From an uncultured Acidobacteriota bacterium (GTDB lineage Bacteria; Acidobacteriota; Thermoanaerobaculia; UBA5066), in NCBI GenBank assembly GCA_963779415.1, contig CAVZYA010000001.1, positions 1,344,001-1,408,000 of the forward strand: a stretch of 64,000 bases of DNA. The letters are read 5' to 3'. Of this stretch, positions 20,608-44,054 are shown one piece after another. The notes beneath the pieces are model-generated. The model was not told the origin of the DNA. It was given only the letters and a program-made list of their open reading frames with translations, and did no database searches. The stretch's first letter is position 1, and every line of letters starts with the position of its first letter. The translations under genes and the position numbers were made by a program.

Positions 20608-20618
20608 AGGAGATACAG

Positions 20619-21105: not shown

Positions 21106-21124
21106 CCTCTCGGAAGGAGGCGAC

Positions 21125-21626: not shown

Positions 21627-21881
21627 ATGCGGCTTCGGAGTCTTGCGGCTTTGATTGCGGGCGCTCTGGCGGTGGCCGTCTCATCTGTTCACCCGGTGGA
21701 CGCCGAGCCGATGCCGGCGAGCGCCTTCATCCAGGATCTGACGTGGCTGCGCGACGTCTGGGCGGCGAAGGAGAAGAGTTTCTCGCCGGAGACCTTGGCG
21801 CGGAGCGCCGGCCTCCGCCGCTCGACCTTCTGCGACGTCTCACGCGATCCGCAGCTAAGATCTACGAGAGGTGCCGAATGA
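21627..21881 (+). pseudogene. Probable N-terminal fragment of an exported protein
   Basis: Signal peptide and a short helical start (QDLTWLRD..KEKSFS), then degenerate sequence. Confidence 0.4.
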
Positions 21882-22369: not shown

Positions 22370-22428
22370 TGCCACTGCAGGGTGCGACACATTCGGCTTC
22401 GTCTAACACGAGATGAAGGGAAACGCGC

Positions 22429-27666: not shown

Positions 27667-29537
27667 TCAGACCAGGTTCTTCAGCACGAGCGTGACGTCG
27701 CGCTTCCCGTCGCCCGAATTCACGCTCAGATGGATCTTCGTGCCGGCCGGCTCGGCGCGAAACCGCTTGCGCAGGGCAACCAGGGTCGCGTCGTCCACGG
27801 GGACGCCCTCCACGGCGACGATCGAATCGCCGGCCCGCAGGCCCGCCGCCTCGGCCGCTCCGCCGACGGTGACGTCGACCACCTTCAGGGCCGCGCCGGC
27901 GCGGTTGATCCACATTCCCGAACGGTCGTAGACGTCGGGGAGCGCGTTCCCCGCGTTCGGCTCGAAGATGATCCGCTTTCCCGCGTAGTCGAAGACGAGG
28001 TTGAAGCGCTTGAGCACTCCCGCGCCGACGTTTCCCGCCACGTACGGGTCGGTGAATCCCCCCTTCTGCTGCAGGCTCAGCTCCGTCACCGGCGAAGAGA
28101 TCGAGACGTCGGCCAGGCGCAGCTCCCCCGCCCGGACGATCAGTCCGCGCGCCGGCCCGCCGACGCCCCAGCCCGTGACGGCTTCGTAACGCGCCCCGAG
28201 CTTCTTCTTCAAGTCGTTCTTCTCGGCGAAGGGCTTCAGGAGGGAGAGCGACGCGCGGCTTCCGGTGTCGATGTCGAACTTGCCGGGGATGCCGTCGATG
28301 CTCCCGTCGACCTGCGGGATCTGGTCGTTGAACCGGAAGGGGACGATGATGCCGTGACCCTGGTAGGCGAATGCCGACGGCACGGTCAGCGTGAGCTGGC
28401 CGTGCTCGTAGTCGATCCGAACCACGAAGCGCTTGAAGACCTCGTAGCCGATCAGCCCCGCCTGCGGGACTCCCTCGACGTCGGCGAAGCTCTCCAGCGG
28501 GAAGACGGCGAATAGCTGTTTCCTGAGCGTCACGTCGCCCACCGAGAGCGACTCGAGGTTCACCAGCCCCACGTCCTCGGATTTTTCCCCCACGCCGCGT
28601 CCCTGAAGCGCCCCTTCGGGCTTCACGCCCAGCCTGGCCGCCAGCGTCGGAGTGATGACGTTGGACCCGCCCGTGTCGCAGAGGAACGTGAAGGGTCCCT
28701 GGCCATTGAGCTTCACCTTCACGTAGATGTGATTGTTGATCAGGTCGAACGGCAGGGTCGTGGCGGTCTTCCCCCCGGCAAACGCGAAATCGGGGGGCGG
28801 AGGAACGGGCATCCGGAACTTCGATTCGTCCAGGGGGACGTCGAACTCGACGCTGTCGATGGCGAAGATCTGGTCGTACTTCGTCTCGCCGTTCGTGGAG
28901 CGCCAGGCGAACGCGATCTTCTTGCCGTCGATCGCCCGGTAGTCGGAAAAGAACGTGGTCCGGGTCTCGATCGCCTGCTTCTCGACGATGTGGTCCACCA
29001 GCCATGTGGCGGTGTCGATCCAGATCTCGAAGAGCCGGCCCCCCTTCGGCGTGATCTTCACGGCCTGGAAGCTGCGGCCGCCCACCTCGTGTGTGCCGCC
29101 GTCCTCGACCGCCGCGGGCCAGCGATCCGGATACCAGTAGGCGAGGCAGCGGCGGTACGCCTCGTCGACCGCTCCCTCGACCTCGTCGCCTCCCTCCATC
29201 CGCTTGGACTGGCCTGAGTTGTCCTGCGTCCATCCCGACTGGCCGTCCCACCCCTCAGCTCCGGTGATGGGACCCAGCTTCAAGGATTCGTAGTGGCGGC
29301 CGGTCAAGAGGTCGTTGAACCTTTCGTCGATCCCCTTGAGCCCCCCGTCTCGATCCGGACGCGGCTGTGGGCCGAGTGCACCCCGTCCCAGGCGGAGCCG
29401 CCCATGGCCTCCTTCGACTTTGCCAGTGCGGCCGCGGGCGTCACCCCGGCCACGGCCGGGGCAGCCGTCAGAGCGAGGGCGAGGACGGCCCCGGCCAGCT
29501 CCATCTTCTGCAGCAACGACACCTCGACGATCGACAT
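27667..29537 (-). CDS. Exported aspartyl protease (two DTG domains) plus PDZ; frameshifted at the C6 run 29341-29346
   Basis: FLCDTGGS and IDTGSRAS, C-terminal PDZ (AGLRAGD); one extra G joins the signal-peptide ORF (ATG 29537) to LKGIDERFNDLLTGR. Confidence 0.85.
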
Positions 29538-29683
29538 CGCACGCCCTCCCTCACGGACGGAACTCTTCCTCCAGATCAACTCACCCACCCGTACGGGTTT
29601 TTCGGCCCGTCGGTTCTCCGCTTCGCGGACGGACCCGCCGCTTCTTGAGAGGCCTGGCCCGCTTCGAAGTTGGCAAGCTCGTT

Positions 29684-29790
29684 TTATCCACGCCTGTAGA
29701 GGTCGGTGCTCTGGTACTTCAGACCGGAGTCGGCCATAAGTGTCACGACCGTGGCACCGGGCCCCAGTCGTTCCGCCACTCGAATCACGG
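29684..29790 (-). pseudogene. C-terminal fragment of a cysteine synthase-family PLP enzyme
   Basis: IRVAERLGPGATVVTLMADSGLKYQSTDLY* is the CysK/CysM C-terminus; the rest of the gene is absent. Confidence 0.75.
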
Positions 29791-29852
29791 CCTCTGCCAT
29801 CCGGACCTTGACGCAGCCGGTTGAGTTCTCCTTCCCGGTCTTTCTCGTCTCC

Positions 29853-30656
29853 TCACCGGCCCAGGGTCGAACAGGCCTCTTCGGCGGCGGCCAGGAGGTC
29901 CTTGGCGGCGCCGGGGTCGATGCATCGGCGCGCGCAAATGGCAATGAGATCCCCCGCAAGCTCCACGCGAAGGAGCCCGCTCTGATGGGCTGCCTTCAGC
30001 ACCAGACGCAGAGCGGGTGTGTCGGCTCGGCGCTCGATCTCCCGGCACTGTCTCGCCAGCCGTACGAGTCCGGCACGCGCTTCCGCCGCCAATGACGTCA
30101 GGGCCGCGTCCAGACGGGGCCCTTCGGCTTGAAACGTCCGGTCGAAGTCAGCGTCCGACGGGTCCACGCTTCCGCTCCCCCGCGCCACTCCACCCTTCCG
30201 TTCCCAGAGACTCAGCCCTGGCCAATCGGCCCCGGGCACGCGGAGGACGGTCGCGGTCCGCATCAGCGTCTGCTTGCCGGACCGGCGGTTGAAGTCGGCC
30301 AGCCACACCTCTCTTCCGCCCGAGGAACCCTCGCAGCCCCAGAGCGTCTCGACGTCGGAGTTCGCGGGATCCGCAAAGACCGACAGGTGGGGAAAGAGGG
30401 CGGTCAGCGACGCGTTGTCGTCCAGGAGCGTGAACCCCGAAAGCTTCGCATACTGCTCCCACCGCGCCCTCCGGCCGAACCACCAGCGCAGGTAGACAAA
30501 CCCGAACAGCGCCGCCGGCGCAAGCAAGACCGCAATCCACAGCCATCCCGGCAGGGTGGAGACGAATTCGAATACGGGATCGACGATCTTCATCACCGCA
30601 CCGAAGAATCTCTCCACCCAGTCGATGAACCGCGCGAGCGCGTCAGGGAGTCTCAT
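29853..30656 (-). CDS. Hypothetical membrane-anchored protein
   Basis: 267-aa ORF, one TM, DADFDRTF motif. Confidence 0.65.
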   Translation of the reverse strand: MRLPDALARFIDWVERFFGAVMKIVDPVFEFVSTLPGWLWIAVLLAPAALFGFVYLRWWFGRRARWEQYAKLSGFTLLDDNASLTALFPHLSVFADPANSDVETLWGCEGSSGGREVWLADFNRRSGKQTLMRTATVLRVPGADWPGLSLWERKGGVARGSGSVDPSDADFDRTFQAEGPRLDAALTSLAAEARAGLVRLARQCREIERRADTPALRLVLKAAHQSGLLRVELAGDLIAICARRCIDPGAAKDLLAAAEEACSTLGR

Positions 30657-30698
30657 TCGACTGAGGCCCGATTCTGACCCTTCTCGCCCTTCAGCGCG

Positions 30699-31055
30699 TC
30701 ACGCCTTCGGCTCGGGCTCGGGGGATTCCGTCCTGCCCCACCGGTTGTTCAGGGCCTTGACGAACGCTTCCCGCTCCTCGGGAGTCATCCTTCCCCAGCG
30801 CCGTCGCATGTCGTACCGCCACGAGCCGCGACCGGAGCCGTGTCCGCGCAATCCTCCGAAGAGAATCCAGCTCAGCGCCATCAGGCCGAGGGCCTGCCAG
30901 TAGCTGATCTCATGCAGCCCGAAGATGCTCGGCATCAGCCAGTTCCAGAGCCCGTAGACCGCCCAGACCAGCCCGGCGAACACCATCAGGAAAACCGGCA
31001 GCAGCGCCACAAGTTTCGCGACGCGATGCACTCTCCTCGTATCCATGGTCTTCAT
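30699..31055 (-). CDS. Small membrane protein co-encoded with the ECF sigma
   Basis: LWNWLMPSIFGL..ISYWQALGL..LSWILFGG; MTPEERE; ATGA overlap with the sigma stop. Confidence 0.85.
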   Translation of the reverse strand: MKTMDTRRVHRVAKLVALLPVFLMVFAGLVWAVYGLWNWLMPSIFGLHEISYWQALGLMALSWILFGGLRGHGSGRGSWRYDMRRRWGRMTPEEREAFVKALNNRWGRTESPEPEPKA

Positions 31056-31621
31056 CCTCCTTTCTCCTTGAACTCGTCGTAAATCCTCTGGAGCCTGCGG
31101 CGCAGATGAAGCACCGCGTAGTGCTTTCGCGAGAGAAGCGTGTTCACGCCGACGCCGGTCTCCGACGCCAGCTCGCGGAAGCTCTTCCCTTCGATCTCGT
31201 GCGCGACGAAGACGTGGCGCTGTTCCTCCGGAAGCTCCGCCAGGGCGGCTTCCAGCTCGTCCAGGAGCACCCCACGCGCATAGGCGGCCTCCGGCCCGGC
31301 GTCCGGCGAAGGGAGCAGCTCTTCGAGCGAACCGATCTCCTCCTCTTCGTCATCCGAAGTGACCCGCGCCAGGGTCGACGACTCCGGCCGCTTCCTGCGG
31401 AACCGGTCGATGATCCGGTTACGCGCCACCCGGAACAGCCAGGCACCGACCTCCTCGATCGGCTTCAACAGGCGGTACGCCTCCACGAGTTCGAAGAAGA
31501 CGTCCTGCAGCAGGTCCTCCACGTCCTCGCGGTCGGGCACGCGCCTGCGGATGAAGTTCCGCAGCCGGCCCTGCTCGCGTTCGATCGCTTCGGCGATTCG
31601 CCGGTCCTGCTCGCTCATCAC
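31052..31621 (-). CDS. ECF RNA polymerase sigma factor
   Basis: EDLLQDVF, AWLFRVARNRIID, SFRELA..TGV..NTLLSRKHYAV. Confidence 0.92.
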   Translation of the reverse strand: MMSEQDRRIAEAIEREQGRLRNFIRRRVPDREDVEDLLQDVFFELVEAYRLLKPIEEVGAWLFRVARNRIIDRFRRKRPESSTLARVTSDDEEEEIGSLEELLPSPDAGPEAAYARGVLLDELEAALAELPEEQRHVFVAHEIEGKSFRELASETGVGVNTLLSRKHYAVLHLRRRLQRIYDEFKEKGG

Positions 31622-31657
31622 CCGCTCGAGGATCAGATCTTCCTCCTCTCATCGATG

Positions 31658-31683
31658 TAGACGGATGAGAAGGCTGGATATTG
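31658..31683 (-). promoter_or_regulatory. Putative ECF autoregulatory promoter CAAT-N16-CGTCTA
   Basis: ECF-like spacing directly upstream of the sigma gene. Confidence 0.45.
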
Positions 31684-31778
31684 TGAAAGGTGGCGCGCGG
31701 ACCACTCAGGGCGTCGCAAGAAGAATCGATGGGGTCCGACGCGGCCGCTGCCCGTGATCAGTCACCTGGCACCTGAAT

Positions 31779-31852
31779 CGCAACTTATCAGACCTGACCC
31801 CATCTGCTTCACTATCTAACCTGCGCACCGCAATCTAGCGGACCTGACCCCA
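31779..31852 (+). repeat. Two tandem transposon-end-like motifs CGCAA-N7-GACCTGACCCCA, 50 bp apart
   Basis: Copies at 31779-31802 and 31829-31852; the core equals the end of the Y1 element at 46485/47491. Confidence 0.8.
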
Positions 31853-31916
31853 CACCTCGCCGCTTTGACCTCGGGGAGGCTGGTGTTAGATTTCACGCTC
31901 AAGGGGGGACTTCTTC

Positions 31917-32624
31917 ATGAAGCGGTTGCCGTTCGCCGTCGGAGTTTCGATACTCGTGTTCGCGATTCCTGCCGCTGCGCAGACGGCCCGGGATGCCGCG
32001 CCTGTCACCGCCGTCCAGACGAAGGAGTCGCAGTCGGCGCTGAAGCCTGCCGACGCGCTGAAGATGCTGAGAGACGGCAACCAGCGCTTCGCGACGGGCC
32101 ATAGCCTCGGGCGGGACCTCACCTCGCAGGTGAAAGGGACCGCGAAGGGCCAGTATCCATTCGCGGCGATCCTGAGCTGCATGGACTCGCGCGCGCCCGC
32201 GGAGCTTGTGTTCGACCAGGGAATCGGCGATGTCTTCTCCATTCGGGTGGCGGGAAACGTCGTGGACGGGGACGACCTCGGAAGCCTGGAATATGCCGCG
32301 AAGGTGGCCGGCGTGAAGCTGATTGTCGTGATGGGCCACTCGAGTTGCGGAGCCGTCAAGGGCGCGATCGAAGACGTCAAGCTCGGCAACCTCACGGCGC
32401 TCCTCGCGAAGATCCGTCCGTCCGTCAAGAGCACGGGCGGGAAGGCGGATGCGAAAAACGACGCATTCGTGACGAAGGTGGCCGAGGCTAACGTTCGCCA
32501 CTCCATGAAGGAGATTCGGGAAAAGAGCCCGGTCCTCAAGGCGCTCATCGACTCCGGCGCCATCGGGCTCGTAGGCGCGATGTACGACGTCGAGACCGGC
32601 AAGGTGACGTTCTACTCGGACTGA
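31917..32624 (+). CDS. Exported beta-carbonic anhydrase
   Basis: LSCMDSR, RVAGN, GHSSCGA; signal peptide. Confidence 0.93.
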   Translation: MKRLPFAVGVSILVFAIPAAAQTARDAAPVTAVQTKESQSALKPADALKMLRDGNQRFATGHSLGRDLTSQVKGTAKGQYPFAAILSCMDSRAPAELVFDQGIGDVFSIRVAGNVVDGDDLGSLEYAAKVAGVKLIVVMGHSSCGAVKGAIEDVKLGNLTALLAKIRPSVKSTGGKADAKNDAFVTKVAEANVRHSMKEIREKSPVLKALIDSGAIGLVGAMYDVETGKVTFYSD

Positions 32625-33194
32625 GAGGCCGCACGGCAGCGGTTCGGCCCGGCCAAGATCGCAGGGCTCTTCGTCGGCTTCGCCGGGGCGGTCCTGGTGG
32701 TCACACGCGGCAAGCTCGGCGCGGGCCTGCTGGCGCTCCCGGCGACCCGCGGCGACCTCCTGATCCTCGCCAGCACGGTCAACTGGGCGCTCTACACCGT
32801 CCTCGGCCACTCGACCATCCGCCGTCTCGGCCCCACGCGGGCCACCGCCGGGACCATGCTCCTCGGCTGGCTGATGCTGGTGCCGCCGTTCGTCGCGGGC
32901 GCGGGCTGGAAAGACTACGCGCGCCTCTCGCCGGCCAGGTGGCTGGCGGTCATCTTCCTCGGCCTCGCCTGCTCGGGCCTGGGCTACCTGTTCTGGTACG
33001 GCGCCCTGGAGCGCGTCGAGGCCTCGCGCGTGGCCGCGCTGCTCTACCTCGAGCCCCTGGTCACCCTGGCCGCAGCGGTCGTGCTCCTGGGAGAGCCAGT
33101 CCCGATCACCACAGTGGCCGGCGGCCTGCTGGTGGTCGGGGGCGTGTTGCTTGTCCAGACCGCCCGGAACGCGAGCCCGCCCGTGTCCCCCTGA
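32625..33194 (+). pseudogene. 5'-truncated EamA/DMT transporter
   Basis: Begins mid-domain (RFGPAKIAGLFVGFAGAVLVV) directly after the carbonic anhydrase stop; YLEPLV, LLGE; its stop lies in CCTGACCCC. Confidence 0.75.
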
Positions 33195-33243
33195 CCCCGT
33201 TCCGACTCGAGGCGAGCCGTATCATCGGGCCGGGGCAGATCAA

Positions 33244-35112
33244 ATGAAGCGCCTCATCCCAGCAATCGCGGCCTTGACGGCTTCGCTCGCGCTCGCGCAG
33301 ACGACGGACATCAGCTCGTACCGCTTCGACTTCTCCCGCCTTTTCCCGACGCCCGAGGCGGAGAAGGCAGACCGGCACTCCCTCGAAAAGACGCTCGGAG
33401 CGCTGGAGGAGCTGCGGGGAAAGGTCGGAAGCAGCTCGCAGAATCTGGCCCGGGCGCTCGAGCTGCGCGACCTCGCGAGGACGCAGTTCTTCCGGCACTA
33501 CATCTATCTGAACCTGCGCGATTCGGTCGATACGTCGAACGCGTCGTGGCAGAGCGAGGCTGAGTCGCTCGACGACGAGGTCAAGGAGAGGACGGCGTTC
33601 CTCGATGACGAGCTTCAAGGGCTGTCGGACGATCTGCTGACGCGATTGGAGCGGGAAAGGCCGGAGCTGGCGCGGTACCGATTCGCCATCGAATCACTTC
33701 GACGCTACCGCGACCATCACCTCTCGGCCGCAGAGGAGAAGGTCTTCATCGCGACCGCGCCGCTCGGCCGCGACTGGCAGTGGGACCTGCACGAGCTGCT
33801 CGTCGCGCGAACGGATTTCGGCACGGTCAACGTGGGCGGAAAGCCCCTCGACGTGCTGCGCGACCGCCTGGCCATCGCGGCGGCCCCCGATCGCTCCGCG
33901 CGCGAGGAGGGATTCCGGAAGCGTTACGCCGGATTCGCCGCACAGCGCGACCTCTACGCGTTCGTTCTCAGGAGCCTGGCGGCATCGCGCAACGCACTGG
34001 CCAAGGTCCACCGCTTCGAGGACGACGCCGCGTGCCGGTACTTCGCCCGGTACTGGACGAAGTCCGATGTGACCAGCCTGCTCGAACGGGTCGCAGAGCG
34101 CGCCGAGGTCTACAAGGGCTACCAGAGGCTGCGCGCCGAGCACATCCGGAGAACGATGAGGTACGAAGAGGTCAACGCTTGGGACATGGAGGCGCGCCCT
34201 TCCGACGTGCTGGTGCCCTGGTTCGGCATCGACGAGGCCCGCGACATCCTCCTGGCGGCGACCGGGCCGCTCGGCACCGACTACCACGGCGAGCTCGCCG
34301 GGCTCCTCGATCCGGCCAGCGGCCGGATGGACATCGTTCCCGGTCCTCACCGCAGATCCGGAGGTTTCAGCCAGGGTTATGTCGGTACAGACAGTCTCTT
34401 CTTCAGCGGCGGCTTTACGGGCTCGTACAACGACGTTCGCGTCCTCATGCACGAGTCGACGCATGCAGTGCAGCGCCAACTAATGAACGCCCATCACGTC
34501 CTGCCATCCTATTTCGACGGTCCGCACTACCTCGCGGAAGCGTACGCGATCTTCAATGAGCTGCTCCTTGCCGACTACCTCTACGCGCGCGAGAAGGACC
34601 CTCTGCGACGCGTCTTCTATGCCGAGCAGTTTCTCGACGGGAAGGGAATGGCGGCCTTCGTCGTGGCGCCGGAGGCGGAGCTGGAGCAGGCCGTCTACGA
34701 CGGCGTCACACGCGGGACCATCCGGAACGCCGACGATCTCGACGCGCTGACGAAACGCGTCTACGGCCGCTACTCGATCTGGCCGGCGAGGCACGATGAG
34801 CTGAAGTCGCAGTGGGCGATCGTGCCGTTGATGTACGAAGACCCTTTCTACGACGTCAACTACGTGTACGGCGCGCTGATCGGTCTGCGCCTCTATGCGA
34901 TGTACGCCAAGGACCCGGTGGCGTTCGCCCCACGCTATGTCGCTGCGCTCCGAGAGGGCTACGACGCGCCGCCGGCGACCTTGCTGCTTCGCAATTTCGG
35001 AATCGACCTGAAAGGGCCGGGCCTCGTCGGCGATGCGGTCACGATTCTGGAGGCCAGGGTCGACGCTCTCGCCCGTGACTACGGCATCGACGTCCGCCCG
35101 CAGAAGCGGTAA
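33244..35112 (+). CDS. Exported M3B oligoendopeptidase F-family peptidase
   Basis: RSGGFS, HESTH (HExxH), AE..AIFNE, YVYG; signal peptide. Confidence 0.88.
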   Translation: MKRLIPAIAALTASLALAQTTDISSYRFDFSRLFPTPEAEKADRHSLEKTLGALEELRGKVGSSSQNLARALELRDLARTQFFRHYIYLNLRDSVDTSNASWQSEAESLDDEVKERTAFLDDELQGLSDDLLTRLERERPELARYRFAIESLRRYRDHHLSAAEEKVFIATAPLGRDWQWDLHELLVARTDFGTVNVGGKPLDVLRDRLAIAAAPDRSAREEGFRKRYAGFAAQRDLYAFVLRSLAASRNALAKVHRFEDDAACRYFARYWTKSDVTSLLERVAERAEVYKGYQRLRAEHIRRTMRYEEVNAWDMEARPSDVLVPWFGIDEARDILLAATGPLGTDYHGELAGLLDPASGRMDIVPGPHRRSGGFSQGYVGTDSLFFSGGFTGSYNDVRVLMHESTHAVQRQLMNAHHVLPSYFDGPHYLAEAYAIFNELLLADYLYAREKDPLRRVFYAEQFLDGKGMAAFVVAPEAELEQAVYDGVTRGTIRNADDLDALTKRVYGRYSIWPARHDELKSQWAIVPLMYEDPFYDVNYVYGALIGLRLYAMYAKDPVAFAPRYVAALREGYDAPPATLLLRNFGIDLKGPGLVGDAVTILEARVDALARDYGIDVRPQKR

Positions 35113-35308
35113 ACCGGCTCCGACCTCCCAGAGCCGACCGCAGAATCGGGCCGCGGAAGATGCCAAAGAGCTCCTCGCCGCCGGAGGTCTCGGTCAGGAC
35201 GTGGTCGTCCTCCGTCGGCTCCTCCTCCACGGCGATGACGGATTCCTCGAAGCGGTCCTTGAATCCCCGGAGCGTCGCCATGAGTTCCCCGGGCGGGTCC
35301 CGTGCCAC
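35113..35308 (-). pseudogene. Fragment of a zincin-like (DUF1025) metallopeptidase
   Basis: IAVEEEP......EELFGIFRG pattern; the HExxH half is missing. Confidence 0.55.
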
Positions 35309-35333
35309 TCAGTATCGCGACGCTCCAGTAGAA

Positions 35334-35479
35334 GGGGTCTGAACGCTATGTAAGCATACTGCAGAAATGGGACCTGACCCCAACGCCACTTGACCCCAAC
35401 GCCACTCGCATCTTCGACGAGAGTAATCCGCCGGCCGGAACACACGAGGCGTCGCTCAGCATCATTGGGGTCTGACCCC
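35334..35479. repeat. Cluster of GGGGTC/TGACCCC motifs: mini-element 35334-35381, 16-bp tandem duplication 35375-35406, palindrome GGGGTCTGACCCC 35467-35479
   Basis: Read directly from the sequence. Confidence 0.85.
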
Positions 35480-35487
35480 GCTTCCAC

Positions 35488-36462
35488 TTACACGTCATGG
35501 TGTTCGATGGTTATTACGACCTTACCTTTGGCATGTCCATCTTCGAGATAGCGGACCGCTTCAGCCACGTCGCCGAGCGGGTAGCGTCTGTCGATGACGG
35601 GAGCGACCTTTCCGGCCGCAAGAAGGTCGCCCAGAAAATCCAAGTCTTCCCTGGTTATCTTCGCGATGAAGAACGTCATCTTCCTGCTGTCGATCCATGA
35701 CAGCAGGGGTCCCAGGACCATTCCCTGAAGAATCTGGGGCCAGCCGCCTCCGACCATGACGTACGTCCCGTCCCGACCGAGAGCACGCCTGTAATCGAAG
35801 ATCGAGCGATGCGAGTTCGCGCCGATGATCAGGTCGTAACGAAGGCCGCTTCGCGTGAAGTCTTCCCGGGTGTAATCGATGACCTGATCAGCGCCGAGCG
35901 ATCGCGCCCTGTCCACGTTCCCCGTGCTGCAGACGGCCGTGACGTCGGCTCCGAACGATTTCGCGATCTGGACCGCGAACGTGCCCACGCCGCCGGACGC
36001 CCCCTCGATCAGGACCTTCTGGCCGGGATGGATGCCTCCCTTGTCACGCAGAGCCTGCAGCGCGCTCATGGCCGCCACGGGGACCGCAGCCGCCTCCTCG
36101 AACGAGAGGTTGGCGGGCTTCAGGGCCAGTTTGTCCTCGGCGGCACACGCATACTCGGCGAAGGCCCCCCGACATACGCCGAAGACCTCATCGCCCGGCT
36201 TGAACCCGGTTACGGACGGGTCAACCGCTTCAACCCGGCCTGCGACATCCACGCCCGGTCGTGTGATCTTCGGCCTGCGAAGTCCCCCGATCATCAGGCG
36301 GGTGAACGCGGGCTTGCCTCTCAGGAGGCGCCAGTCGAGCGGATTCACGGAGGCCGCCCGAATCCTTATCAGGACTTCGTGCTCCTTTGGGGTCGGTTCT
36401 TCGACCTCCGTGAGTTTCAGGACGTCCGAGGAACCGTATTCCGTATTTATGATCGCTTTCAT
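35488..36462 (-). CDS. NAD(P)-dependent MDR alcohol dehydrogenase/quinone oxidoreductase
   Basis: AASVNPLDW, GASGGVGTFAVQIAK, GHAKGKVVI. Confidence 0.92.
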   Translation of the reverse strand: MKAIINTEYGSSDVLKLTEVEEPTPKEHEVLIRIRAASVNPLDWRLLRGKPAFTRLMIGGLRRPKITRPGVDVAGRVEAVDPSVTGFKPGDEVFGVCRGAFAEYACAAEDKLALKPANLSFEEAAAVPVAAMSALQALRDKGGIHPGQKVLIEGASGGVGTFAVQIAKSFGADVTAVCSTGNVDRARSLGADQVIDYTREDFTRSGLRYDLIIGANSHRSIFDYRRALGRDGTYVMVGGGWPQILQGMVLGPLLSWIDSRKMTFFIAKITREDLDFLGDLLAAGKVAPVIDRRYPLGDVAEAVRYLEDGHAKGKVVITIEHHDV

Positions 36463-36544
36463 AAGCCGTTGTTCCTGCCATCTCTACTTCGTCTTAGGTA
36501 TAGCAGCAGTCTGACCCTACTTCTACGCTGTAATCTCGGCCGGG

Positions 36545-37741
36545 ATGCAGCCAGAGCCGATGGACGCGCACGCTTCTGGACCGCAGGGATGGGTGCTCTA
36601 CGACGGCGGCTGCGGCGTCTGCGCGAGGTGGGTTCCGTTCTGGGGGCCCACGCTGGGACGGCTCGGCCTCGCCGTCGCGCCGCTCCAGGAGCCGTGGGTG
36701 GCCGCCCGGGTCGGCGTCCCGCCCGACGCCCTGCTGACAGACATCCGGCTCCTGTTCCGCGATGGTCGGCAGCTCGCGGGCGCCGATGTCTATCGGTACG
36801 TGATGCGGCGACTCTGGTGGGCCACACCGCTCTACCTCCTGGCCGCCGCGCCCTGCCTCCGCCAGCTCTTCGACGGCGCGTACCGGGCCTTCGCCGACCA
36901 CCGGCACCGGATTTCCAGGGCCTGCGGCCTGGGTCCGGAGGCGCACGAAGCGTCGGATTCGCCGGTCCGTGGTGTCGTTTCCTTACCGTATCGAAGGGCA
37001 TTTCTCACCGCCGAGTGGCGCTACCTCGTCATGCTGAACTACGAGGTGGATCCCCGAATTCTCGAGCCGCTCGTCCCGATTGGCACTGTGCTCGACCTGT
37101 GGCAGGGGCGGGCGCTCGTCAGCGTAGTGGGATTCAGGTTTCTGAGGGCGCGCCTTTTCGGTGTCGCGGTTCCTTTTCACCGGAGTTTCGACGAGGTAAA
37201 CCTCCGTTTCTACGTCCGGCGCCATCTCATGGAGGACGAAGTGCGCCGCGGCGTCGTCTTCGTGCGCGAGTTCGTGCCGCGCTCGGCCGTCGCGCTCCTC
37301 GCGCGGCTCGCCTACAACGAGCCGTATCGTGTCGTCCCGATGCGAAGCACGCTTCCGGAAGCGACGGTCGAAGCCTCTGGGCGGATCGCTTATGAATGGC
37401 GGACCGGGGAGAGCTGGGAACGCCTCGGCGCGGTCGCCACAGGTGCGGGCACGGTTCCGGCGCCGGAGTCGGAGGCGGCTTTCATTACCGGACACTATTG
37501 GGGCTACACGCGGCAGCGCGACGGGGGGACCGTCGAGTACGAAGTGGCGCATCCCGCATGGCGCGTCTGGAAGGCGGAGCGTCCGGAGCTTTCCGCCGAG
37601 CACCTCGGGCTTTTTGGCGACCCCTTCGCCCGGTCCCTCTCAGGGCCGCCAGTCTCGGCTTTCGTCGCCGACGGCTCGGCCGTCGTCGTCTATCCGCCGC
37701 GACGGTTGACATGCGGCGTGGATCGCACTGGCCGAACCTGA
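36545..37741 (+). CDS. DCC1-like thiol-disulfide oxidoreductase fused to DUF2071 (YqjF)
   Basis: YDGGCGVC (DxxCxxC); then FLTAEWRYL, FDEVNLRFYVR, FITGHYWGY, YEVAHP. Confidence 0.8.
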   Translation: MQPEPMDAHASGPQGWVLYDGGCGVCARWVPFWGPTLGRLGLAVAPLQEPWVAARVGVPPDALLTDIRLLFRDGRQLAGADVYRYVMRRLWWATPLYLLAAAPCLRQLFDGAYRAFADHRHRISRACGLGPEAHEASDSPVRGVVSLPYRRAFLTAEWRYLVMLNYEVDPRILEPLVPIGTVLDLWQGRALVSVVGFRFLRARLFGVAVPFHRSFDEVNLRFYVRRHLMEDEVRRGVVFVREFVPRSAVALLARLAYNEPYRVVPMRSTLPEATVEASGRIAYEWRTGESWERLGAVATGAGTVPAPESEAAFITGHYWGYTRQRDGGTVEYEVAHPAWRVWKAERPELSAEHLGLFGDPFARSLSGPPVSAFVADGSAVVVYPPRRLTCGVDRTGRT

Positions 37742-37777
37742 CGCCGTGGCCAGGTCGCGTCCGTTCTCTTCGCCGCG

Positions 37778-38485
37778 TCACAACCCCAGGTAAGCCTCGC
37801 GGACGCGCTGGTTTTCGAGAAGCTCCGCGCCGGTGCCGGAGAGGACGACGCGCCCCGACTCGAGGACGAAGCCCCGGTGGGCGATGCGGAGGGCATGCTC
37901 GGTGTTCTGCTCCACGAGAAGCACCGTCACCCCCTGGCGGTTGATCTCCTCCACGACCTGGAACATCTCCTCTACGAGCACCGGCGCCAGCCCCAGGCTC
38001 GGCTCGTCGAGCATCAGGATCCGGGGCCCCGCCATCAGGCCGCGGCCGATGGCCACCATCTGCTGCTCGCCCCCCGAGAGGGTCCCGGCCATCTGCCCCT
38101 GCCGCTCGCGGAGCTTCGGGAAGATGCCGAAGACAGTCTCCAGCCGCTCCGCCTGACGGGTCCGCGCCGAGGCGTGGAAGCCCCCGAGGAGGAGGTTGTC
38201 CCGCACCGTCATCTCGGGAAAGAGCTTTCTCCCCTCGGGAACGTGGATGACGCCCCGCTCGACGATCTCCATCGTGGAGCGGCTCTCCAGCGGATCTCCT
38301 TCCAGCCGGATCGTCCCGCCCTCGGGTTTGAGGAGCCCCGAAATCGCCTTCAGCGTCGTCGTCTTCCCCGCTCCGTTCGCGCCGACGAGCGCCACGATCT
38401 CGCCGGGCTGGACATCGAAGCCGACGTCCCAGAGGGCGGTGACCTGCCCGTAGCGGACCTTCAGCCCCTCGACGTGCAGCATCAC
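37778..38485 (-). CDS. livF: Branched-chain amino acid ABC transporter ATPase
   Basis: GANGAGKT, LSGGEQQM, LDEPSLGLAP, VEQN. Confidence 0.9.
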   Translation of the reverse strand: MMLHVEGLKVRYGQVTALWDVGFDVQPGEIVALVGANGAGKTTTLKAISGLLKPEGGTIRLEGDPLESRSTMEIVERGVIHVPEGRKLFPEMTVRDNLLLGGFHASARTRQAERLETVFGIFPKLRERQGQMAGTLSGGEQQMVAIGRGLMAGPRILMLDEPSLGLAPVLVEEMFQVVEEINRQGVTVLLVEQNTEHALRIAHRGFVLESGRVVLSGTGAELLENQRVREAYLGL

Positions 38486-40164
38486 GCCACCCGTTTCCCG
38501 AAGTAGGCGGCCAGGACCGCGGGCTCCTCCACGACGCGAGCCGGGAGCCCCTCCGCGATCTTCTCCCCCTGGTTGATCACGACCACGCGGTCGCTGATCC
38601 GCATGATCGCCTTCATGACGTGCTCCACCAGGACGATCGTCACGCCCGATGCGCGGATCCGATTGACGAGATCCGAGGCCACGTCGACTTCCGTGGCGTT
38701 CAGCCCCCCCATCGGCTCGTCCAGGAGCAGGAGGCGGGGCCCCGTGGCCAGCGCCTTGGCCATCTCGAGGCGTTTCTGGTCCATCAGCGTCAGCCGGCTC
38801 GCGATCTCGTCCGATCGGTCCGCGAGGCCGACCCGAGCCAGCACCGCCGTGGCGGCCGCTTCGGCGTCACTTCGAGCCGGGTGGCGAAGAAAGGCGGCCA
38901 GCGTCACGTTCTCCAGCGCCGAAAGGCCGGGGAACGGCTGGACGATCTGGAACGTCCGGGCGATTCCCCTCCGCGCCACCGCGTGAGGCCGCATCCCCAC
39001 GACGCTCTGCCCGTCGAGCCGGATCGCTCCCGCGTGGGGGCGGATGAAGCCGGTGACGAGGTTGAAGACCGTCGTCTTCCCGGAGCCGTTCGGCCCGATG
39101 AGCCCCAGGATCTCCCCGTCGGTCACCAAGAAAGAGAGATCGGAGACGGCGCGTACGCCGCCGAAGTGTCGGGTCAGGCCCTGAACCTCGAGCAGCGCCA
39201 CGTCAGGCTCCCGCCTCGGAAGGCCGGTGGCGAGCCGGCGGACGCGGCCCCAGATCCCTTCCGGCATGAACCGGATCACCAGCATCATGAAGAGGCCATA
39301 GAGGATGAGATGGCCCATCGGGAAGCGGTCCCGGACCAGCTCGGCGACCGTCGTGAGGAAGACGGCGCCGACCAGCGGGCCGCCCACCGTTCCGAGCCCC
39401 CCGACGACCGCGATGAAGACCATCTCCATCGAGAGCCCGATGCCGGCGACGGCGTCCGGGTCGACGTACCGGAAGTAGAACGCGTAGAAGCCGCCCCCCA
39501 TGCCGGCAAGGAAAGCGGAAAGCGCCAGCGTGACGACCTTGGCACGGACCGTGTCGATCCCCACCGCCTCGGCGGCGTCCTCGTTCTCGCGGATGGCGAC
39601 GAGGTACGCGCCGAGCCGCGAGCGGCGCAGCCATCCGGTCGCGAGGAGGGCCACGACCGCGAGGAGCGCGGCCGCCACGTAAAAGGGGGTCTGCCCCTCC
39701 CAGTTCACCGCCAGGCCGAAGAGACGCACCGGCGGAAGCGTCGTGATGAGGTAGCCGACGGACCCAGCCGTGACGGATTCCCAGTTCAACGCCACGAGCT
39801 TGACGATCTCCGCCACCGCCAGAGTGGCGAGAGCGAAGTACGGGCCGCGCAGCCGGAAACAGAGGAGGCCGATCGGGACCGAGACGAGGGCCGCCATGAG
39901 GCCCCCGAGGGGAATTCCCCACCACGGCGCGAGGCCGCCCTTCAGGAAAAGGATGATCGTCGTGTAGGCACCTACCGCGAAGAGCGCGGCGTGCCCGAAC
40001 GAGACCTGTCCGGCGAAACCGCCGAGGACGTTCCAGGCCGCGCCGAGGAGCGTCCACATCAGGATGAGGATGCAGACGTGAAGGAAGAACGAGTTCCGGA
40101 TGGAAAGTGGAATGGCGACGAGGACGGCGACGCCCGCGAGCGCGGGCAGGAACCGGCGCGTCAC
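38482..40164 (-). CDS. LivM permease and LivG ATPase in one reading frame (possible internal GTG start near 39202)
   Basis: GQVSFGHA, RLRGPYFALATL, AIRENE; then GPNGSGKT, LLLDEP, VEH. Confidence 0.85.
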   Translation of the reverse strand: MTRRFLPALAGVAVLVAIPLSIRNSFFLHVCILILMWTLLGAAWNVLGGFAGQVSFGHAALFAVGAYTTIILFLKGGLAPWWGIPLGGLMAALVSVPIGLLCFRLRGPYFALATLAVAEIVKLVALNWESVTAGSVGYLITTLPPVRLFGLAVNWEGQTPFYVAAALLAVVALLATGWLRRSRLGAYLVAIRENEDAAEAVGIDTVRAKVVTLALSAFLAGMGGGFYAFYFRYVDPDAVAGIGLSMEMVFIAVVGGLGTVGGPLVGAVFLTTVAELVRDRFPMGHLILYGLFMMLVIRFMPEGIWGRVRRLATGLPRREPDVALLEVQGLTRHFGGVRAVSDLSFLVTDGEILGLIGPNGSGKTTVFNLVTGFIRPHAGAIRLDGQSVVGMRPHAVARRGIARTFQIVQPFPGLSALENVTLAAFLRHPARSDAEAAATAVLARVGLADRSDEIASRLTLMDQKRLEMAKALATGPRLLLLDEPMGGLNATEVDVASDLVNRIRASGVTIVLVEHVMKAIMRISDRVVVINQGEKIAEGLPARVVEEPAVLAAYFGKRVA

Positions 40165-41024
40165 TTCCCCGTCCCAAAGAGCCCCGACGGCCGGTAGAGG
40201 AGGACGGCCAGGAAGAGAACGAAGCCGATCCCGTCCTTGTAGGTGCCGGAAACGTAGACCGCGCCGAGCGACTCGACGACGCCGAGGAGGATCCCTCCCG
40301 CGATGGCTCCCGGGACCGATCCGAGACCCCCGAGCACCACGATGACGAAGCACTTGACGATGAGCAGCTCCCCCACCGTCGGGTAGAGGTAGAGCGACGG
40401 GGCGAGAAGAACGCCTGCGGCGCCCGCCAGCGCCGTCCCGAGGCCGAACGTGACCATCGACACGCGCTCCACGTCGATTCCCATCAGGACGGCCGCCTCG
40501 GCGCTCTGGCTCGTGGCGCGGATGGCACGTCCCAGATCGGTCCGCGAAAGGAAGAGCCAGAGCGCCACCGTGACGAGGATGGCCAGGACGAACGCGATGG
40601 CGAGCGGAACGGCGATAACGATCCCCAGCGGGCGGAGCGGTGTGATCCCGTACGACAGGGAGATCGTCCGGTAGTCGCCGGTCCAGACGAAGAGGGCGAG
40701 GTTGGCGATGAGAAGCGACAGGCCGGCCGTGTAGAGGAGGGTGTTCAGCTCTCCGCCGGGAATGATCTTCCGGAGGAGAAACCGGTAGACGAGAGTCCCG
40801 AGAAGGAACATGAGAGGGGTCCAGACGAGGATCGAGACGAAGGGGTCCAACTTCCAGAGCGCCTGGCCCCAGAAGGCCCCGAACATCCCCAGCATCACCA
40901 TCTCGCCGTGGGCGAGGTTGATGATCCGCATCACCCCGAAGACCACGGTGAGCCCGATGCCGATCATGGCGTAGAGGGCCCCCGTCAGGACCCCGCTCAC
41001 CAGGCTCTGGGCAAACGTCTCCAT
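40161..41024 (-). CDS. livH: Branched-chain amino acid ABC transporter permease
   Basis: GVMRIINLAHGE, GRAIRA, VLGGLGS. Confidence 0.9.
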   Translation of the reverse strand: METFAQSLVSGVLTGALYAMIGIGLTVVFGVMRIINLAHGEMVMLGMFGAFWGQALWKLDPFVSILVWTPLMFLLGTLVYRFLLRKIIPGGELNTLLYTAGLSLLIANLALFVWTGDYRTISLSYGITPLRPLGIVIAVPLAIAFVLAILVTVALWLFLSRTDLGRAIRATSQSAEAAVLMGIDVERVSMVTFGLGTALAGAAGVLLAPSLYLYPTVGELLIVKCFVIVVLGGLGSVPGAIAGGILLGVVESLGAVYVSGTYKDGIGFVLFLAVLLYRPSGLFGTGK

Positions 41025-41073
41025 CAGGTCAGGGTCGCCGGCCCGTCCCGCCGAAGACCGGCGGGCCCTGCCG

Positions 41074-42300
41074 CTACTTCTTCACCGGCTCGGGAAAGAC
41101 GAGCGCCGTTTCGGCGTAAGCCTTGGGCCAGACGTTCAGAAGCTGGCCACCTCTCCACTGGGCCATGACCGTCTGCCCCGGCGAGTAGATGTTCTGGTTC
41201 GTGTAGGCGTCGCCCATCGGGCCGGTCCAGTTTCCGAACTTCACCTTGCCGAAGACGGTCGTCATGTCGGTGGCGAGAAGGGCCTTGCGAATCGCCTCGC
41301 GGTCGGCGTCGAGATTGCCGGTCAGCTTTGCCCGCTTGATCGCGTCGGCCAGGATGTAGATGGCCGAGTACCCCTCCACCTCGTGCTCGTGCGGCCAGAT
41401 GTTGTACTTGGCATGGAACTTCTCGTAGAAGGCCTTCGTTCTCGGATCGTTCGGATTCCCGGACCAGGCGGCCGAGGAGAAGACGTTCTCGGCCTGGGGG
41501 CCGAGCTGGGAGGCGAAATCGGAGACGCCGAAGCCGCCGCCGAAGCCGACGAAAGCGCGCGGGGTGAGCCCCATCTCCTTGGCGTGGCGGGTGAGAAGGA
41601 TGGCGTCGGTGGTGGCCACCGCCACCATCAGGACGTAGTCCGGATTCGTCGCTTTCACCTTCGTCATGGTCGGCTTGAAGTCGAGCGTGTTGACCGGATA
41701 GGCCTCATCGGCCACGACGGGGACGTTCTTCGACTTCAGGATCTGGATCACCGCGCCGCCGATCGTCTTCCCGAAGAGCGTGTTGTCGTAGATGACGGCC
41801 GCCGACTTCGGCAACGCGCCCGGGTAGTTCGAGATGAAGTCCGAGAACGCCGCCGGGTAGATCGACCCGGTCGGGTTGTTGCGGAAGACCCATTCGAACC
41901 CCTTGGCCGTGATCATGTCGGCGGACGGGTGGTCGACGAGGTACGGGGTCTTGAGGCGCTGGCAGACGGAGGCGACCTCCATCGCCTGGCCGGACCCGCG
42001 CCCACCGGTCATCGCCAAGACCTTCTCCTGGGTGATCAGCTTCTCAGCCACCGTGGCCGCGAGCTGGTTCTTGGCCTGGTGGTCCTCGATGAGGATCTCC
42101 AGCTTCCGGCCGTTGATCCCTCCGGCCGCGTTGATCTCCTCCAGGGCCATCGTGTAGGCCTTCTTGAACTTGTCGCCGAACGGGGCGTCGGGCCCGGTCA
42201 TCGGCTGGGGGGCTCCGATCTTGATCGGCTGCGCCAGCAGGGACGTCGACGCCAGGACACCCAGGAACGTCAGAGCCGAGGACACGAGTCTGCGCATCAC
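41074..42300 (-). CDS. ABC substrate-binding protein (LivK/PBP1 type)
   Basis: Signal peptide, IKIGAPQPMTG, EINAAGGINGR. Confidence 0.9.
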   Translation of the reverse strand: MMRRLVSSALTFLGVLASTSLLAQPIKIGAPQPMTGPDAPFGDKFKKAYTMALEEINAAGGINGRKLEILIEDHQAKNQLAATVAEKLITQEKVLAMTGGRGSGQAMEVASVCQRLKTPYLVDHPSADMITAKGFEWVFRNNPTGSIYPAAFSDFISNYPGALPKSAAVIYDNTLFGKTIGGAVIQILKSKNVPVVADEAYPVNTLDFKPTMTKVKATNPDYVLMVAVATTDAILLTRHAKEMGLTPRAFVGFGGGFGVSDFASQLGPQAENVFSSAAWSGNPNDPRTKAFYEKFHAKYNIWPHEHEVEGYSAIYILADAIKRAKLTGNLDADREAIRKALLATDMTTVFGKVKFGNWTGPMGDAYTNQNIYSPGQTVMAQWRGGQLLNVWPKAYAETALVFPEPVKK

Positions 42301-42336
42301 GTTCTCCCTCTCCCTTTATTCGATTTCGCCGCCGCT

Positions 42337-43848
42337 TCAGCCGAGCGTCGGCATGGTGAAGCCGGCCTTCCCCTTCTCCTCGGGCTCGGGCCAGCGTGTG
42401 GTGACGGCCTTCGTTCGCGTGTAGAACTTGACCCCTTCCCTGCCATGGACGTGGAGATCACCAAAGAGAGACTGCTTCCACCCGCCGAACGAGTAGAAAG
42501 CCATCGGGACGGGGATCGGGACGTTGATCCCCACCATCCCGACCTCGACCTCGTGCTCGAAGGTCCGGGCGGCATGGCCGGAATTCGTGAAGATCGCCGT
42601 CCCGTTGCCGTAGGGGTTTCCATTCACGATGGCGATTGCCTCATCCAGCGTGCGTGCCCGGAGGACCACGAGCACCGGCCCGAAGATCTCCTCACGGTAG
42701 ACGGTCATCGACGGCGTCACCTGGTCGAAGAGCGTCGGCCCGAGGAAGAAGCCTTTCTCCGAGCCGGGGACCTTCAGGCCACGCCCGTCGAGGACCGGCT
42801 TCGCCCCCTCGAGGACCCCTTTCTCGATCAGCCCGCGGACCCGGTCGCGGTGAGCGGGGGTGACGAGAGGCCCCATCTCCACGCCCGCCTCGGTGCCGGG
42901 GCCGACCTTCAGGGCTTCTGCTTTCTGTTTCAGCCGATCCACGAGGCGGTCGCCGATCTCTCCCACCGCCACCACCGCCGAGATCGCCATGCAGCGCTCC
43001 CCGGCGGAGCCGTACGCCGCGCCGATGAGCGCGTTGACCGTGAACTCCAGCTCGCAGTCCGGCAGGACGACGGCGTGATTCTTCGCCCCCGCGAGGGCCT
43101 GAACGCGCTTGCCCGAGCGGGCGGACGTCTCGTAGACGTGTCGCGCGATCGGCGTCGAGCCGACGAACGACACCGCATTCACGCCGGGGTGGCCGAGGAG
43201 GGCGTTCACCGTCTCGCCGTCCCCCATCAGGACGTTCAGAACGCCGTCCGGCAGGCCCGCTTCGTGGAAGAGCTTCGCGAGGAGAAGCGAACAGGACGGA
43301 TCCTTCTCCGAGGGCTTCAGGACGAAGGTGTTCCCGCAGGCGACGGCCACCGGGAACATCCACATCGGCACCATCGCCGGGAAGTTGAAGGGGGTGATGC
43401 CGGCGCAGACGCCGACGGGCTGGAGGACCGAGTGGCTGTCGACACCGCCGGCCACGTCCTCGGACTGCTCCCCTTTCAGGAGGTGCGGGATACCCTCGGC
43501 GAACTCCACCACCTCGATTCCGCGCTGAAGGGAGCCGGCCGCGTCGGGGAGCGTCTTGCCGTGCTCCTCGGTGATCAGGCTCGTCAGCTCCGACCGGTGC
43601 GCCTCGAGCAGCTCGCGGTAACGGGCCAAGATCCGGGCGCGGCGAAGGGGCGGCGTCCCTCTCCAGCCGGGAAGCGCCGCATGGGCCGCGGCCACGGCGC
43701 GATCGACGTCGGTGGGGCCGGCGAAGAAGACGCGGCGGATGACCTGGCCCCGCGCCGGGTCGAAGACGTCGCCGATCCGGCCGCTCGTCCCTGAGACCTC
43801 TTTGCCGCCGATCCAGAACGGAAGGACGGGTGCGGTCATTACGCTCAT
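42337..43848 (-). CDS. mmsA: CoA-acylating methylmalonate-semialdehyde dehydrogenase
   Basis: ITPFNFPAMVPMW, SFVGST, GAKNH, GSAGERCMA, FGGWKQSLFGD. Confidence 0.92.
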   Translation of the reverse strand: MSVMTAPVLPFWIGGKEVSGTSGRIGDVFDPARGQVIRRVFFAGPTDVDRAVAAAHAALPGWRGTPPLRRARILARYRELLEAHRSELTSLITEEHGKTLPDAAGSLQRGIEVVEFAEGIPHLLKGEQSEDVAGGVDSHSVLQPVGVCAGITPFNFPAMVPMWMFPVAVACGNTFVLKPSEKDPSCSLLLAKLFHEAGLPDGVLNVLMGDGETVNALLGHPGVNAVSFVGSTPIARHVYETSARSGKRVQALAGAKNHAVVLPDCELEFTVNALIGAAYGSAGERCMAISAVVAVGEIGDRLVDRLKQKAEALKVGPGTEAGVEMGPLVTPAHRDRVRGLIEKGVLEGAKPVLDGRGLKVPGSEKGFFLGPTLFDQVTPSMTVYREEIFGPVLVVLRARTLDEAIAIVNGNPYGNGTAIFTNSGHAARTFEHEVEVGMVGINVPIPVPMAFYSFGGWKQSLFGDLHVHGREGVKFYTRTKAVTTRWPEPEEKGKAGFTMPTLG

Positions 43849-43953
43849 GACGCTCTCCCCATTTCAGGCCCTGTCAGCGGCGATCCCCGGTCGGAATGTT
43901 CGCTGCGCGTAATCCCGGGCCGCCGTGATCGTTTCGATGCCAAAGCGGAGCGC

Positions 43954-44011: not shown

Positions 44012-44040
44012 GGGGTCGCGTCTCAATTATCTATTATAGT
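44012..44040 (+). repeat. Variant transposon end GGGGTCGCGTCT followed by an AT-rich tract
   Basis: 10/12 match to GGGGTCAGGTCT at 46485, same orientation, just past the kinase stop. Confidence 0.6.
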
Positions 44041-44054
44041 CACGTCGCAGGAAG

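Follow-up and report, generated by a model that had tools for sequence, protein, structure and literature searches.

The DNA analysed here, called the window throughout, is a stretch of 64,000 nucleotides (nt) from an uncultured Acidobacteriota bacterium, positions 1344001–1408000 of contig 1 in a genome of 4.36 Mb and three contigs (G000 in the comparisons); its GC content is 68%. Strings of the type TGACCCC recur across about 8 kb of it (29684–37745), among unrelated genes and gene pieces, and a sequence-only reading had taken this region for an integron-like gene-capture array stacked by the enzyme of a nearby Y1 element. The strings are the outer ends of a 27–35 nt repeat that ends in GACCTGACCCY, and this repeat is the terminal inverted repeat (TIR) of an element of the published TIRtron class, whose RAYT-like transposases are called TIRYT. 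The explanation that we favour, with moderate confidence, is that TIRs of RAYT-like TIRYT genes have piled up and are decaying in an integration hotspot, with no organised capture device; the array-like look would be the product of repeat scatter and decay.

The motif had been attributed to the ends of the nearby Y1 element, and inverted copies of the repeat do stand at both sides of its transposase gene. The layout of the element is given below, where the stutter is a short tandem duplication past the repeat end, described later, and G003 is the complete genome of a relative.

46485–46519, minus strand: TIR at the 3′ end of the TIRtron, holding the transposase stop codon (nhmmer E 2.5e-5)
46509–47471, minus strand: TIRYT gene, a RAYT-like Y1 (HUH) transposase of 320 amino acids (aa) (Pfam Y1_Tnp, E 6.2e-11)
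47472–47506, plus strand: TIR at the 5′ end of the TIRtron (nhmmer E 1.8e-4)
47507–47540, plus strand: flank-word stutter with one extra TGACCCT; homology to G003 resumes at 47540

Across the genome, ACCTGACCCC occurs 32 times, most occurrences having another 15–25 nt in common upstream. A nhmmer profile built from these copies gave 39 matches at E<1, and four more, of a variant subtype, were found separately; the family thus comprises 39–43 copies, about 40, which are solo or in tandem, including tandem pairs. There are three subtypes, differing in the inner part and sharing the end GACCTGACCCY; the outer end reads GGGGTCAG, which fits the GGGGWSAS consensus. Outside called genes lie 36 of the 39 copies, according to crude, GC3-based gene calls that leave about 25% of the genome uncalled, and 11 of the 39 are found at 1375–1437 kb of contig 1, an interval that takes in the right half of the window. 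Local overlaps aside, the genome holds no near-identical TIR copies, and the surroundings of solo TIRs have no longer element in common other than TIRYT-end remnants and one unrelated repeat of 63–150 bp. Six single copies folded as DNA formed no hairpin beyond their shuffles (z −1.6 to +0.5), so the TIR is not a classical palindromic REP (repetitive extragenic palindromic sequence), and that identity was rejected. Within the window, CTGACCCY is found 14 times against 5.09 ± 2.32 expected, a count that none of 100 shuffles reached. Seven of the 14 sites are on the plus strand between 30674 and 36518, where about 0.3 would be expected, by our own arithmetic, from the density in the genome as a whole (313 sites in 4.36 Mb, both strands counted).

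The 320-aa protein scores 82.5 bits against NCBIfam NF047646, “REP-associated tyrosine transposase” (cutoff 80), and its translation contains the HUH (HYH) and Y (RYVVLNP) motifs. Its homologues number at least 7982 (E≤1e-20); RayT or transposase is the name of many, some come from Acidobacteriota/Thermoanaerobaculia, and the full-length ones have 55–87% identity. The C-terminal half gave only a sub-threshold match to the helix-turn-helix (HTH) family AbiEi_4 (E 9e-4, 19.7 bits against a cutoff of 25). By tblastn the genome contains four TIRYT paralogues (100, 73, 59 and 69% identity) and two fragments, with no near-identical copies among them. Each of the four stands between inverted TIRs, which are of the paralogue's own subtype and have their outer ends away from the gene, and in two of the paralogues the stop codon falls inside the 3′ TIR copy. 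Since the paralogues are only 59–73% identical, nothing points to recent activity. The TIRtron at 46485–47506 is missing from the matching site of G003.

Repeat and enzyme also go together among 41 relatives of three families, a set that includes the unpublished genomes G025 and G030 and whose members are kin and not independent, which makes the tallies descriptive. AGACCTGACCCY is present in 0–128 copies per genome (reversed-pattern control 0–3, both strands summed). All 18 genomes with at least six copies have a TIRYT match, and the ten genomes with no such match have 0–3 copies each. The terminal 12-mer is kept in 32 of the 41 genomes, in three families of one order. Most copies in G031 form inverted pairs 45–80 bp apart, and in G035, which belongs to another family than the window's genome, TIRs form tandem arrays with a period of 27 nt.

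The element belongs to a class that is already published and is not the new system that had been proposed as a candidate. The text of Di Nocera et al. (2013; PMC3733652) describes RAYT-like genes between long terminal inverted repeats as TIRtrons and their enzyme as TIRYT, with TIR families that are moderately abundant, as singles, dimers and clusters, with genomes that have several TIRYT genes carrying different TIRs, and with a sharply defined TIRYT group of Acidobacteria; the shared GGGGWSAS is given in the text of both this account and that of Quentin et al. (2018; PMC6006769). The latter text equates TIRYT with TnpA-Y1 subclass 2.1, long proteins with a C-terminal HTH-like extension, the domain being Bac_DnaA_C, HTH_23 or HTH_28, and on this statement TIRYT is probably that subclass. 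As far as these texts go, the element here is like the class in its RAYT-like Y1/HUH gene, about 320 aa long and extended at the C-terminus, in the long inverted repeats that flank the gene in place of hairpin REPs, in GGGGWSAS at the outer end, in the singles, dimers and clusters found elsewhere, in the several TIRYT genes per genome with different TIRs and in its occurrence in Acidobacteria. The passages of text consulted, figures and supplementary TIR lists aside, make no mention of the 14–16 nt stutter seen here, of an order-wide terminal 12-mer or of passenger genes bracketed by TIRs.

Other known systems are alike in part. REP-RAYT systems were reportedly treated by Nunvar in 2010. In common with REP/REPIN–RAYT systems (Bertels and Rainey 2011; Bertels 2017, PMC5581495), a Y1 gene is flanked by a short, intergenic repeat that it presumably spreads, the repeat subtype fits the enzyme paralogue, and repeat and enzyme co-occur across genomes; the inverted doublets of G031 recall REPINs. 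The classical REP, however, is a 20–40 nt palindrome with a GTAG or CGTC tag, whereas here there is neither a significant hairpin nor such a tag. The classical RAYT is single-copy and vertically inherited, whereas here there are four diverged paralogues and two fragments, with the window copy missing at the G003 site. The copy number of about 40 is also low. With IS200/IS605 elements (IS608, ISDra2) the element shares the HUH/Y1 catalytic core and an expected nicking of one strand at a short sequence that the element end determines. In those elements the hairpins are subterminal and inverted repeats are lacking; they exist as multiple near-identical copies and make no target duplication, whereas TIRs, paralogues of 59–73% identity and a tandem duplication at the ends are found here. 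The likeness to integrons and IS91/ISCR is outward only, consisting of unrelated genes and a short recurring motif in one orientation. The 22 open reading frames (ORFs) scanned at 27.5–49.5 kb include no IntI-type recombinase and no Y2 rolling-circle transposase, the only HUH protein being the Y1-type TIRYT. The Rfam scan of the window gave no match of any family at gathering scores, no dedicated attC model having been run. Unlike those systems, the motif is missing from most junctions and the modules do not consist of one gene and one site.

The region with the cited motifs was compared with five genus mates; relatives have 75–90% DNA identity, so that intergenic homology fades fast. Its features, with one degenerate TIR farther to the right, are as follows.

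27667–29621, minus strand: core gene, left anchor of the slot; no Pfam family; 86–87% DNA identity in G003 and G006
29687–29821, minus strand: short C-terminal gene fragment, 45 aa; no Pfam match; 97 nt at 80% elsewhere in G003
29853–30656, minus strand: 267-aa ORF; no Pfam family; 82% identical copy elsewhere in G003
30699–31621, minus strand: pair of a small membrane protein and an extracytoplasmic function (ECF) sigma factor; Sigma70_r2 and r4 domains
31768–31801, plus strand: solo TIR, subtype of the contig-2 paralogue 1273696–1274388 (nhmmer E 0.047)
31830–31851, plus strand: partial TIR, tandem to the 31768 copy (nhmmer E 0.87 and 5.3), with the exact 12-mer GGACCTGACCCC
31917–32624, plus strand: beta-carbonic anhydrase gene (Pro_CA, E 1.4e-42)
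32625–33194, plus strand: 5′-truncated drug/metabolite transporter (DMT; EamA) gene; one EamA domain; frame open from the carbonic anhydrase stop codon
33179–33198, plus strand: probably a degenerate TIR (G035 subtype), located where the transporter fragment ends 3′; 13 matches in 20 positions by our own alignment
33244–35112, plus strand: M3-family peptidase gene; Peptidase_M3 and M3_N domains
35145–35267, minus strand: zincin-like N-terminal fragment; 86% DNA identity to contig 3 257525–257647
35324–35381, plus strand: stump of a TIRtron 5′ end, a TIR with about 25 nt of its inner side (nhmmer E 2.7e-4)
35375–35406, plus strand: stutter, TGACCCC and 9 nt of flank twice in tandem, read in the sequence
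35467–35479, no strand assigned: GGGGTCTGACCCC beside the stop codon of the next gene, ambiguous; partly aligns with the ancestral, repeat-free flank in G003 and G005
35488–36462, minus strand: medium-chain dehydrogenase/reductase (MDR) zinc-dehydrogenase gene, right anchor of the slot; ADH_N and ADH_zinc_N_2; 84–85% identity in G003 and G005
36499–36518, plus strand: degenerate motif in the MDR–DCC divergent intergenic region; kept in G003 and missed by the repeat profile
36545–37741, plus strand: gene of a DCC1-like and DUF2071 fusion, from domain matches
44020–44046, minus strand: degenerate TIR between aldehyde dehydrogenase and kinase genes (nhmmer E 7.1); missing at the matching place of G003

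Two core genes enclose a hypervariable slot, window 29.6–35.5 kb. In G003 the counterparts of window 27667–29550 and 35493–36928 are about 100 bp apart, and the 5.85 kb that separates them here is therefore an indel. A different gene adjoins the MDR gene in G005, and in G006 that other gene and the ECF pair lie next to the same left anchor. The slot is filled here with a 5.85 kb mosaic of genes of differing ancestry and gene stumps. It also holds two TIRs in tandem, the decayed end of a TIRtron and one or two further TIRs that are degenerate; TIR copies lie near its right edge and none at its left edge. Among public reads, two soil runs of one study contained 9% of the sampled words, as contigs only and with no joints listed; some short contigs were identical to the window across 30562–30712, 36498–36674 and 37623–37800, matches that carry no information on excision.

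The region had been described as a patchwork of unrelated genes and fragments, and the comparison with relatives bears out this mixed ancestry. A block of G006 is 88% identical to window 30687–31695, which holds the ECF pair, and lies close to the left anchor there too. For the carbonic anhydrase gene, the only DNA matches (68–74%) come from genomes that belong to another family of the order. The half transporter was rightly recognised as such: its 70% aa identity covers residues 111–291 of a 298-aa homologue in G035. The same is true of the zincin fragment, which corresponds to the opening ~41 codons of a paralogue of a contig-3 gene (127 aa; Zincin_1, E 2e-25). No orthologue of the M3 peptidase was found in 40 relatives, the best matches, in two genomes, being 23–24% identical. 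The TIRtron stump matches the 5′ end of the contig-2 paralogue at 77% over 79 nt. The short gene at the left edge is indeed a C-terminal fragment, but its label “cysteine synthase” could not be verified, as it has no Pfam match. To the right of the slot, the DCC1-like/DUF2071 fusion is also present in G005, on the opposite side of a cluster of ATP-binding cassette (ABC) and aldehyde dehydrogenase genes; the G003 gene is DCC-only and stops after the DCC domain.

Ten motif copies had been cited as element ends at the module junctions. All ten strings are present where they were placed, but only three to five belong to the repeat family and the rest are bare or short matches. The profile of the full 27–35 nt repeat recognises three of them, at 31768–31801 (E 0.047), 31830–31851 (weak, E 5.3) and 35347–35381 (E 2.7e-4), and the site at 33190 is probably a degenerate TIR copy, judging from the alignment listed above. 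The strings at 35391–35397 and 35473–35479 are bare heptamers, and the sites 30673, 31731, 35334 and 37736 consist of a short match (6–10 nt) and nothing further. The copy at 36499–36518, proposed as a capture junction, is a degenerate look-alike which G003 also has, at a conserved and unbroken MDR–DCC gene junction, and that role is not supported.

The junctions themselves tell the same story. The statement that most of them carry the motif is true of a minority of those set by comparison with relatives; the majority have no repeat. No recognised copy was found at ~29621–29640, 29851, 31695, 32624/32625, 37773 or 43870, and the junction at 30656/30687 has only the bare nonamer of 30673 alongside. 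A gain or loss of modules exactly at the motif, which alignment with relatives had been proposed to test, is not what most junctions display. Where modules are shared, no repeats were found at their borders in the relatives either (ECF pair in G006; ABC cluster in G002, G004 and G005; 267-aa ORF in G003). The ABC/aldehyde-dehydrogenase cluster (37773–43870) is 90% identical in G002, G004 and G005, with differing neighbours, and 48.7 kb of its loci in these three genomes contain no TIR; 219 kb of relatives' matching loci contain one. Taken junction by junction, an integron-like array stacked by the enzyme is unsupported.

The stutter at the repeat ends consists of the final 7 bases of the repeat and 7–9 flank bases, duplicated in tandem with a period of 14–16 nt, and it follows about a quarter to a third of the TIR copies. 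By our own reading it is present after at least 11 of the ~43 family copies of this genome vs 1 of the ~272 other CTGACCCY sites, and the pattern GACCTGACCCY-N8-11-TGACCCY gave 64 matches in 16 of the 41 genomes vs none for the reversed control; the stutter is family-specific. Both ends of the TIRtrons stutter independently, with different flank words, so the stutter is not a target duplication of the whole element. A target-duplication model in which flank words bracket long inserts was rejected: around 43 copies flank words recurred in 8 cases downstream vs 14 in the upstream control, which is no excess, and the case at locus L038 is best taken as chance. We infer that the enzyme would act between GACC and TGACCCy and a few bases past the end, the stutter being its footprint.

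In the favoured explanation, TIR copies would spread through nicks that TIRYT enzymes make in single-stranded DNA at TIR ends. Nicking would leave the 14–16 nt tandem duplication of the last seven TIR bases and 7–9 flank bases, and would probably make TIR ends prone to local rearrangement, while the TIRs would gather and survive in dispensable, recently acquired DNA. Repeat-free indels are common: against G003, four TIR-free control regions of 20 kb each (80 kb) show four of them (0.4, 2.0, 7.7 and 15.7 kb), and some 25 of the 80 kb, about a third, are specific to this genome. These indels, and the relatives' loci almost devoid of repeats, indicate that most gene flux takes place without repeats.

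Several observations weigh against this explanation. Comparison of seven further TIR loci with genus mates placed every one of these repeats within, or at the border of, a segment of 0.45 to >4 kb which the relatives lack or have in a different form. At L039, for instance, four relatives have an empty site of 14–20 bp between convergent genes, where this genome has 778 bp that hold the repeat together with a short ORF and a gene for a small lipoprotein. TIRs are thus over-represented in lineage-specific DNA (7 of 7 vs a base rate of about one third), which is unlikely to be due to chance alone, and the proposed tie between repeat copies and such DNA is upheld. Junctions also come close to repeat ends: within 18 nt at L038, 11–16 nt at L040, and 2 nt at the start of a 4.2 kb insertion in G044. 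In the genus of G035, a unit with a DMT gene between TIRs and a DUF962-like gene replace each other with a right border at most 8 nt from the repeat end. The full-length DMT gene there stands between inverted tandem TIR pairs in G035, G050 and G044, the truncated window homologue still has, at the corresponding end, a degenerate TIR, and this DMT subfamily was found in only 2 of the 41 genomes (the G035 gene and the window stump). In the region itself, four CTGACCCY sites outside the family exceed the ~0.25 expected, and all five TIR-like copies share a single orientation, as had been noted for most of the motif copies. Nicking at TIR ends, the first step of the explanation, is itself something that we infer.

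The slot of the G035 genus has the DMT gene in six genomes and flanking repeat pairs in three of them; G047, G045 and G042 have no exact repeat match beside the gene, and three other genomes have the DUF962-like gene without repeats. The DMT and G044 facts fit nicking-induced rearrangement, passive recombination and true mobilisation alike, and enzyme-driven rearrangement at the repeat ends may have taken place. That the Y1 enzyme nicks TGACCCC and stacks passenger modules by one-ended or surrogate-end transposition, with no need of attC or IntI, is nevertheless quite unlikely. Such stacking would account for the DMT genes between TIRs in G035, G050 and G044 and for the truncated copy with its degenerate TIR, for the insertion beginning 2 nt from a TIR end, for the common orientation of the five copies, for the seven loci linked with lineage-specific DNA and for a stutter that shows something acting exactly at the heptamer. 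Against it stand the junctions without a recognised repeat or, at 30656/30687, with only the bare nonamer, the shared modules with no TIR at their borders in relatives, the flank words that are not in excess around long inserts and the lack of near-identical TIRYT or TIR copies; moreover, the repeat-bracketed DMT gene sits at one syntenic locus in its genus and is therefore old and vertically inherited there. It is also improbable, as a whole, that the TIRs serve as passive portable homology, at which incoming DNA from a relative recombines with a resident TIR while its other end joins illegitimately, and through which resident TIRs could promote deletions or replacements, with one junction at the TIR and the other motif-free. 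The terminal 12-mer common to 32 of the 41 genomes suits such an origin, as do the one-sided pattern of the slot, repeated at L038, L040 and G044, and the resemblance of the slot's carbonic anhydrase and DMT genes to genes of another family of the order. However, an imperfect identity of 27–35 nt between subtypes is short for RecA-dependent anchoring, and the stutter is left unexplained.

A regulatory role of the motif, as an outward promoter or leader into neighbouring genes with a −10-like hexamer ~13 nt before its end, is very unlikely. The repeat does contain TATAAT, TAGACT or CATACT hexamers, and some TIR ends lie 1–22 nt from start codons in G035, in G044 and in the window, where the kinase ATG at 46463 is 21 nt from the repeat end. 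There is, however, no conserved −35; a gene starts in the same direction within ~120 nt after only about 10 of the 39 copies, and a comparable or larger number of copies face a gene end; and the copies flank transposase genes as inverted repeats, their number following the presence of the transposase. As our own tally gave no consistent orientation toward gene starts, this role was rejected. Least probable of all, and hardly credible, is that the motif matches arise by chance in high-GC DNA. The genome has 1668 bare TGACCC hexamers, and at four of the ten cited sites the match covers only 6–10 nt, but none of the shuffles reaches the observed count, the family aligns over 27–35 nt and the reversed control yields 0–3 copies per genome. 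Chance is refuted for the repeat family as a whole and is possible for 30673, 31731, 35334 and 37736.

Some further observations were made along the way. The unrelated small repeat found near solo TIRs (63–150 bp, 83–95% identity) has five copies in this genome, at 131539–131893 and 288044–288106 of contig 2, 301263–301410 of contig 3, and 690361–690443 and 691422–691524 of contig 1; three of them are 50–400 nt past TIR ends, each right downstream of a different small minus-strand gene. Contig 3 100001–115686 (L109), 15.7 kb, has only paralogue-level matches (67–70%) in G003 and no repeat copy, and contig 3 may be rich in accessory DNA. In L088 (G035, C47 28801–29830) and L104 (G044, C33), repeat ends lie 1–2 nt before start codons, and that subtype has GGAG ~12 nt upstream. 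G003 has a degenerate repeat with a flank-word stutter of its own (C1, L014 10359–10383), beside the homologue of the window gene at 27667 and at the point where synteny with this genome ends. After the stutter of the TIRtron, window 47540–47683 is a 144 bp block with a GC-rich hairpin, which in G003 is downstream of the DCC gene; the order of the kinase and this block is swapped between the two genomes. The MDR dehydrogenase ends in ...NTMTC* here and in ...NTL* in G003, the change being right at the slot border (35488–35497). Window 15001–23000 has a GC content of 0.61 vs ~0.69 on either side and may be a foreign segment.

A bolder idea is that TIRYTs are more than domesticated spreaders of repeats: they would cut between GACC and TGACCCy and again a few bases past the repeat, leaving the stutter as their trace, and would occasionally move or admit much longer DNA; we regard it as speculative and doubtful. 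If it were true, the repeat-bracketed DMT genes and the insertions 0–2 nt from a TIR end would be products of TIRYT cutting, hotspots such as window 29.6–35.5 kb would be graveyards of such events, and gene gain would have a Y1-driven route without integrase or attC.

What the window contains, then, is a case of the TIRtron/TIRYT class, which has been little studied, at an ordinary hotspot of gene content; the integron-like proposal does not hold. For specialists of REP/RAYT systems, the interest lies in a terminal 12-mer common to three families with an inner repeat that co-varies with the enzyme paralogue, in a family-specific tandem duplication that points to where the enzyme acts, and in repeat ends that border lineage-specific DNA, including a repeat-bracketed transporter gene. 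The stutter and the border footprints provide concrete substrates and predictions for biochemical work on TIRYT.

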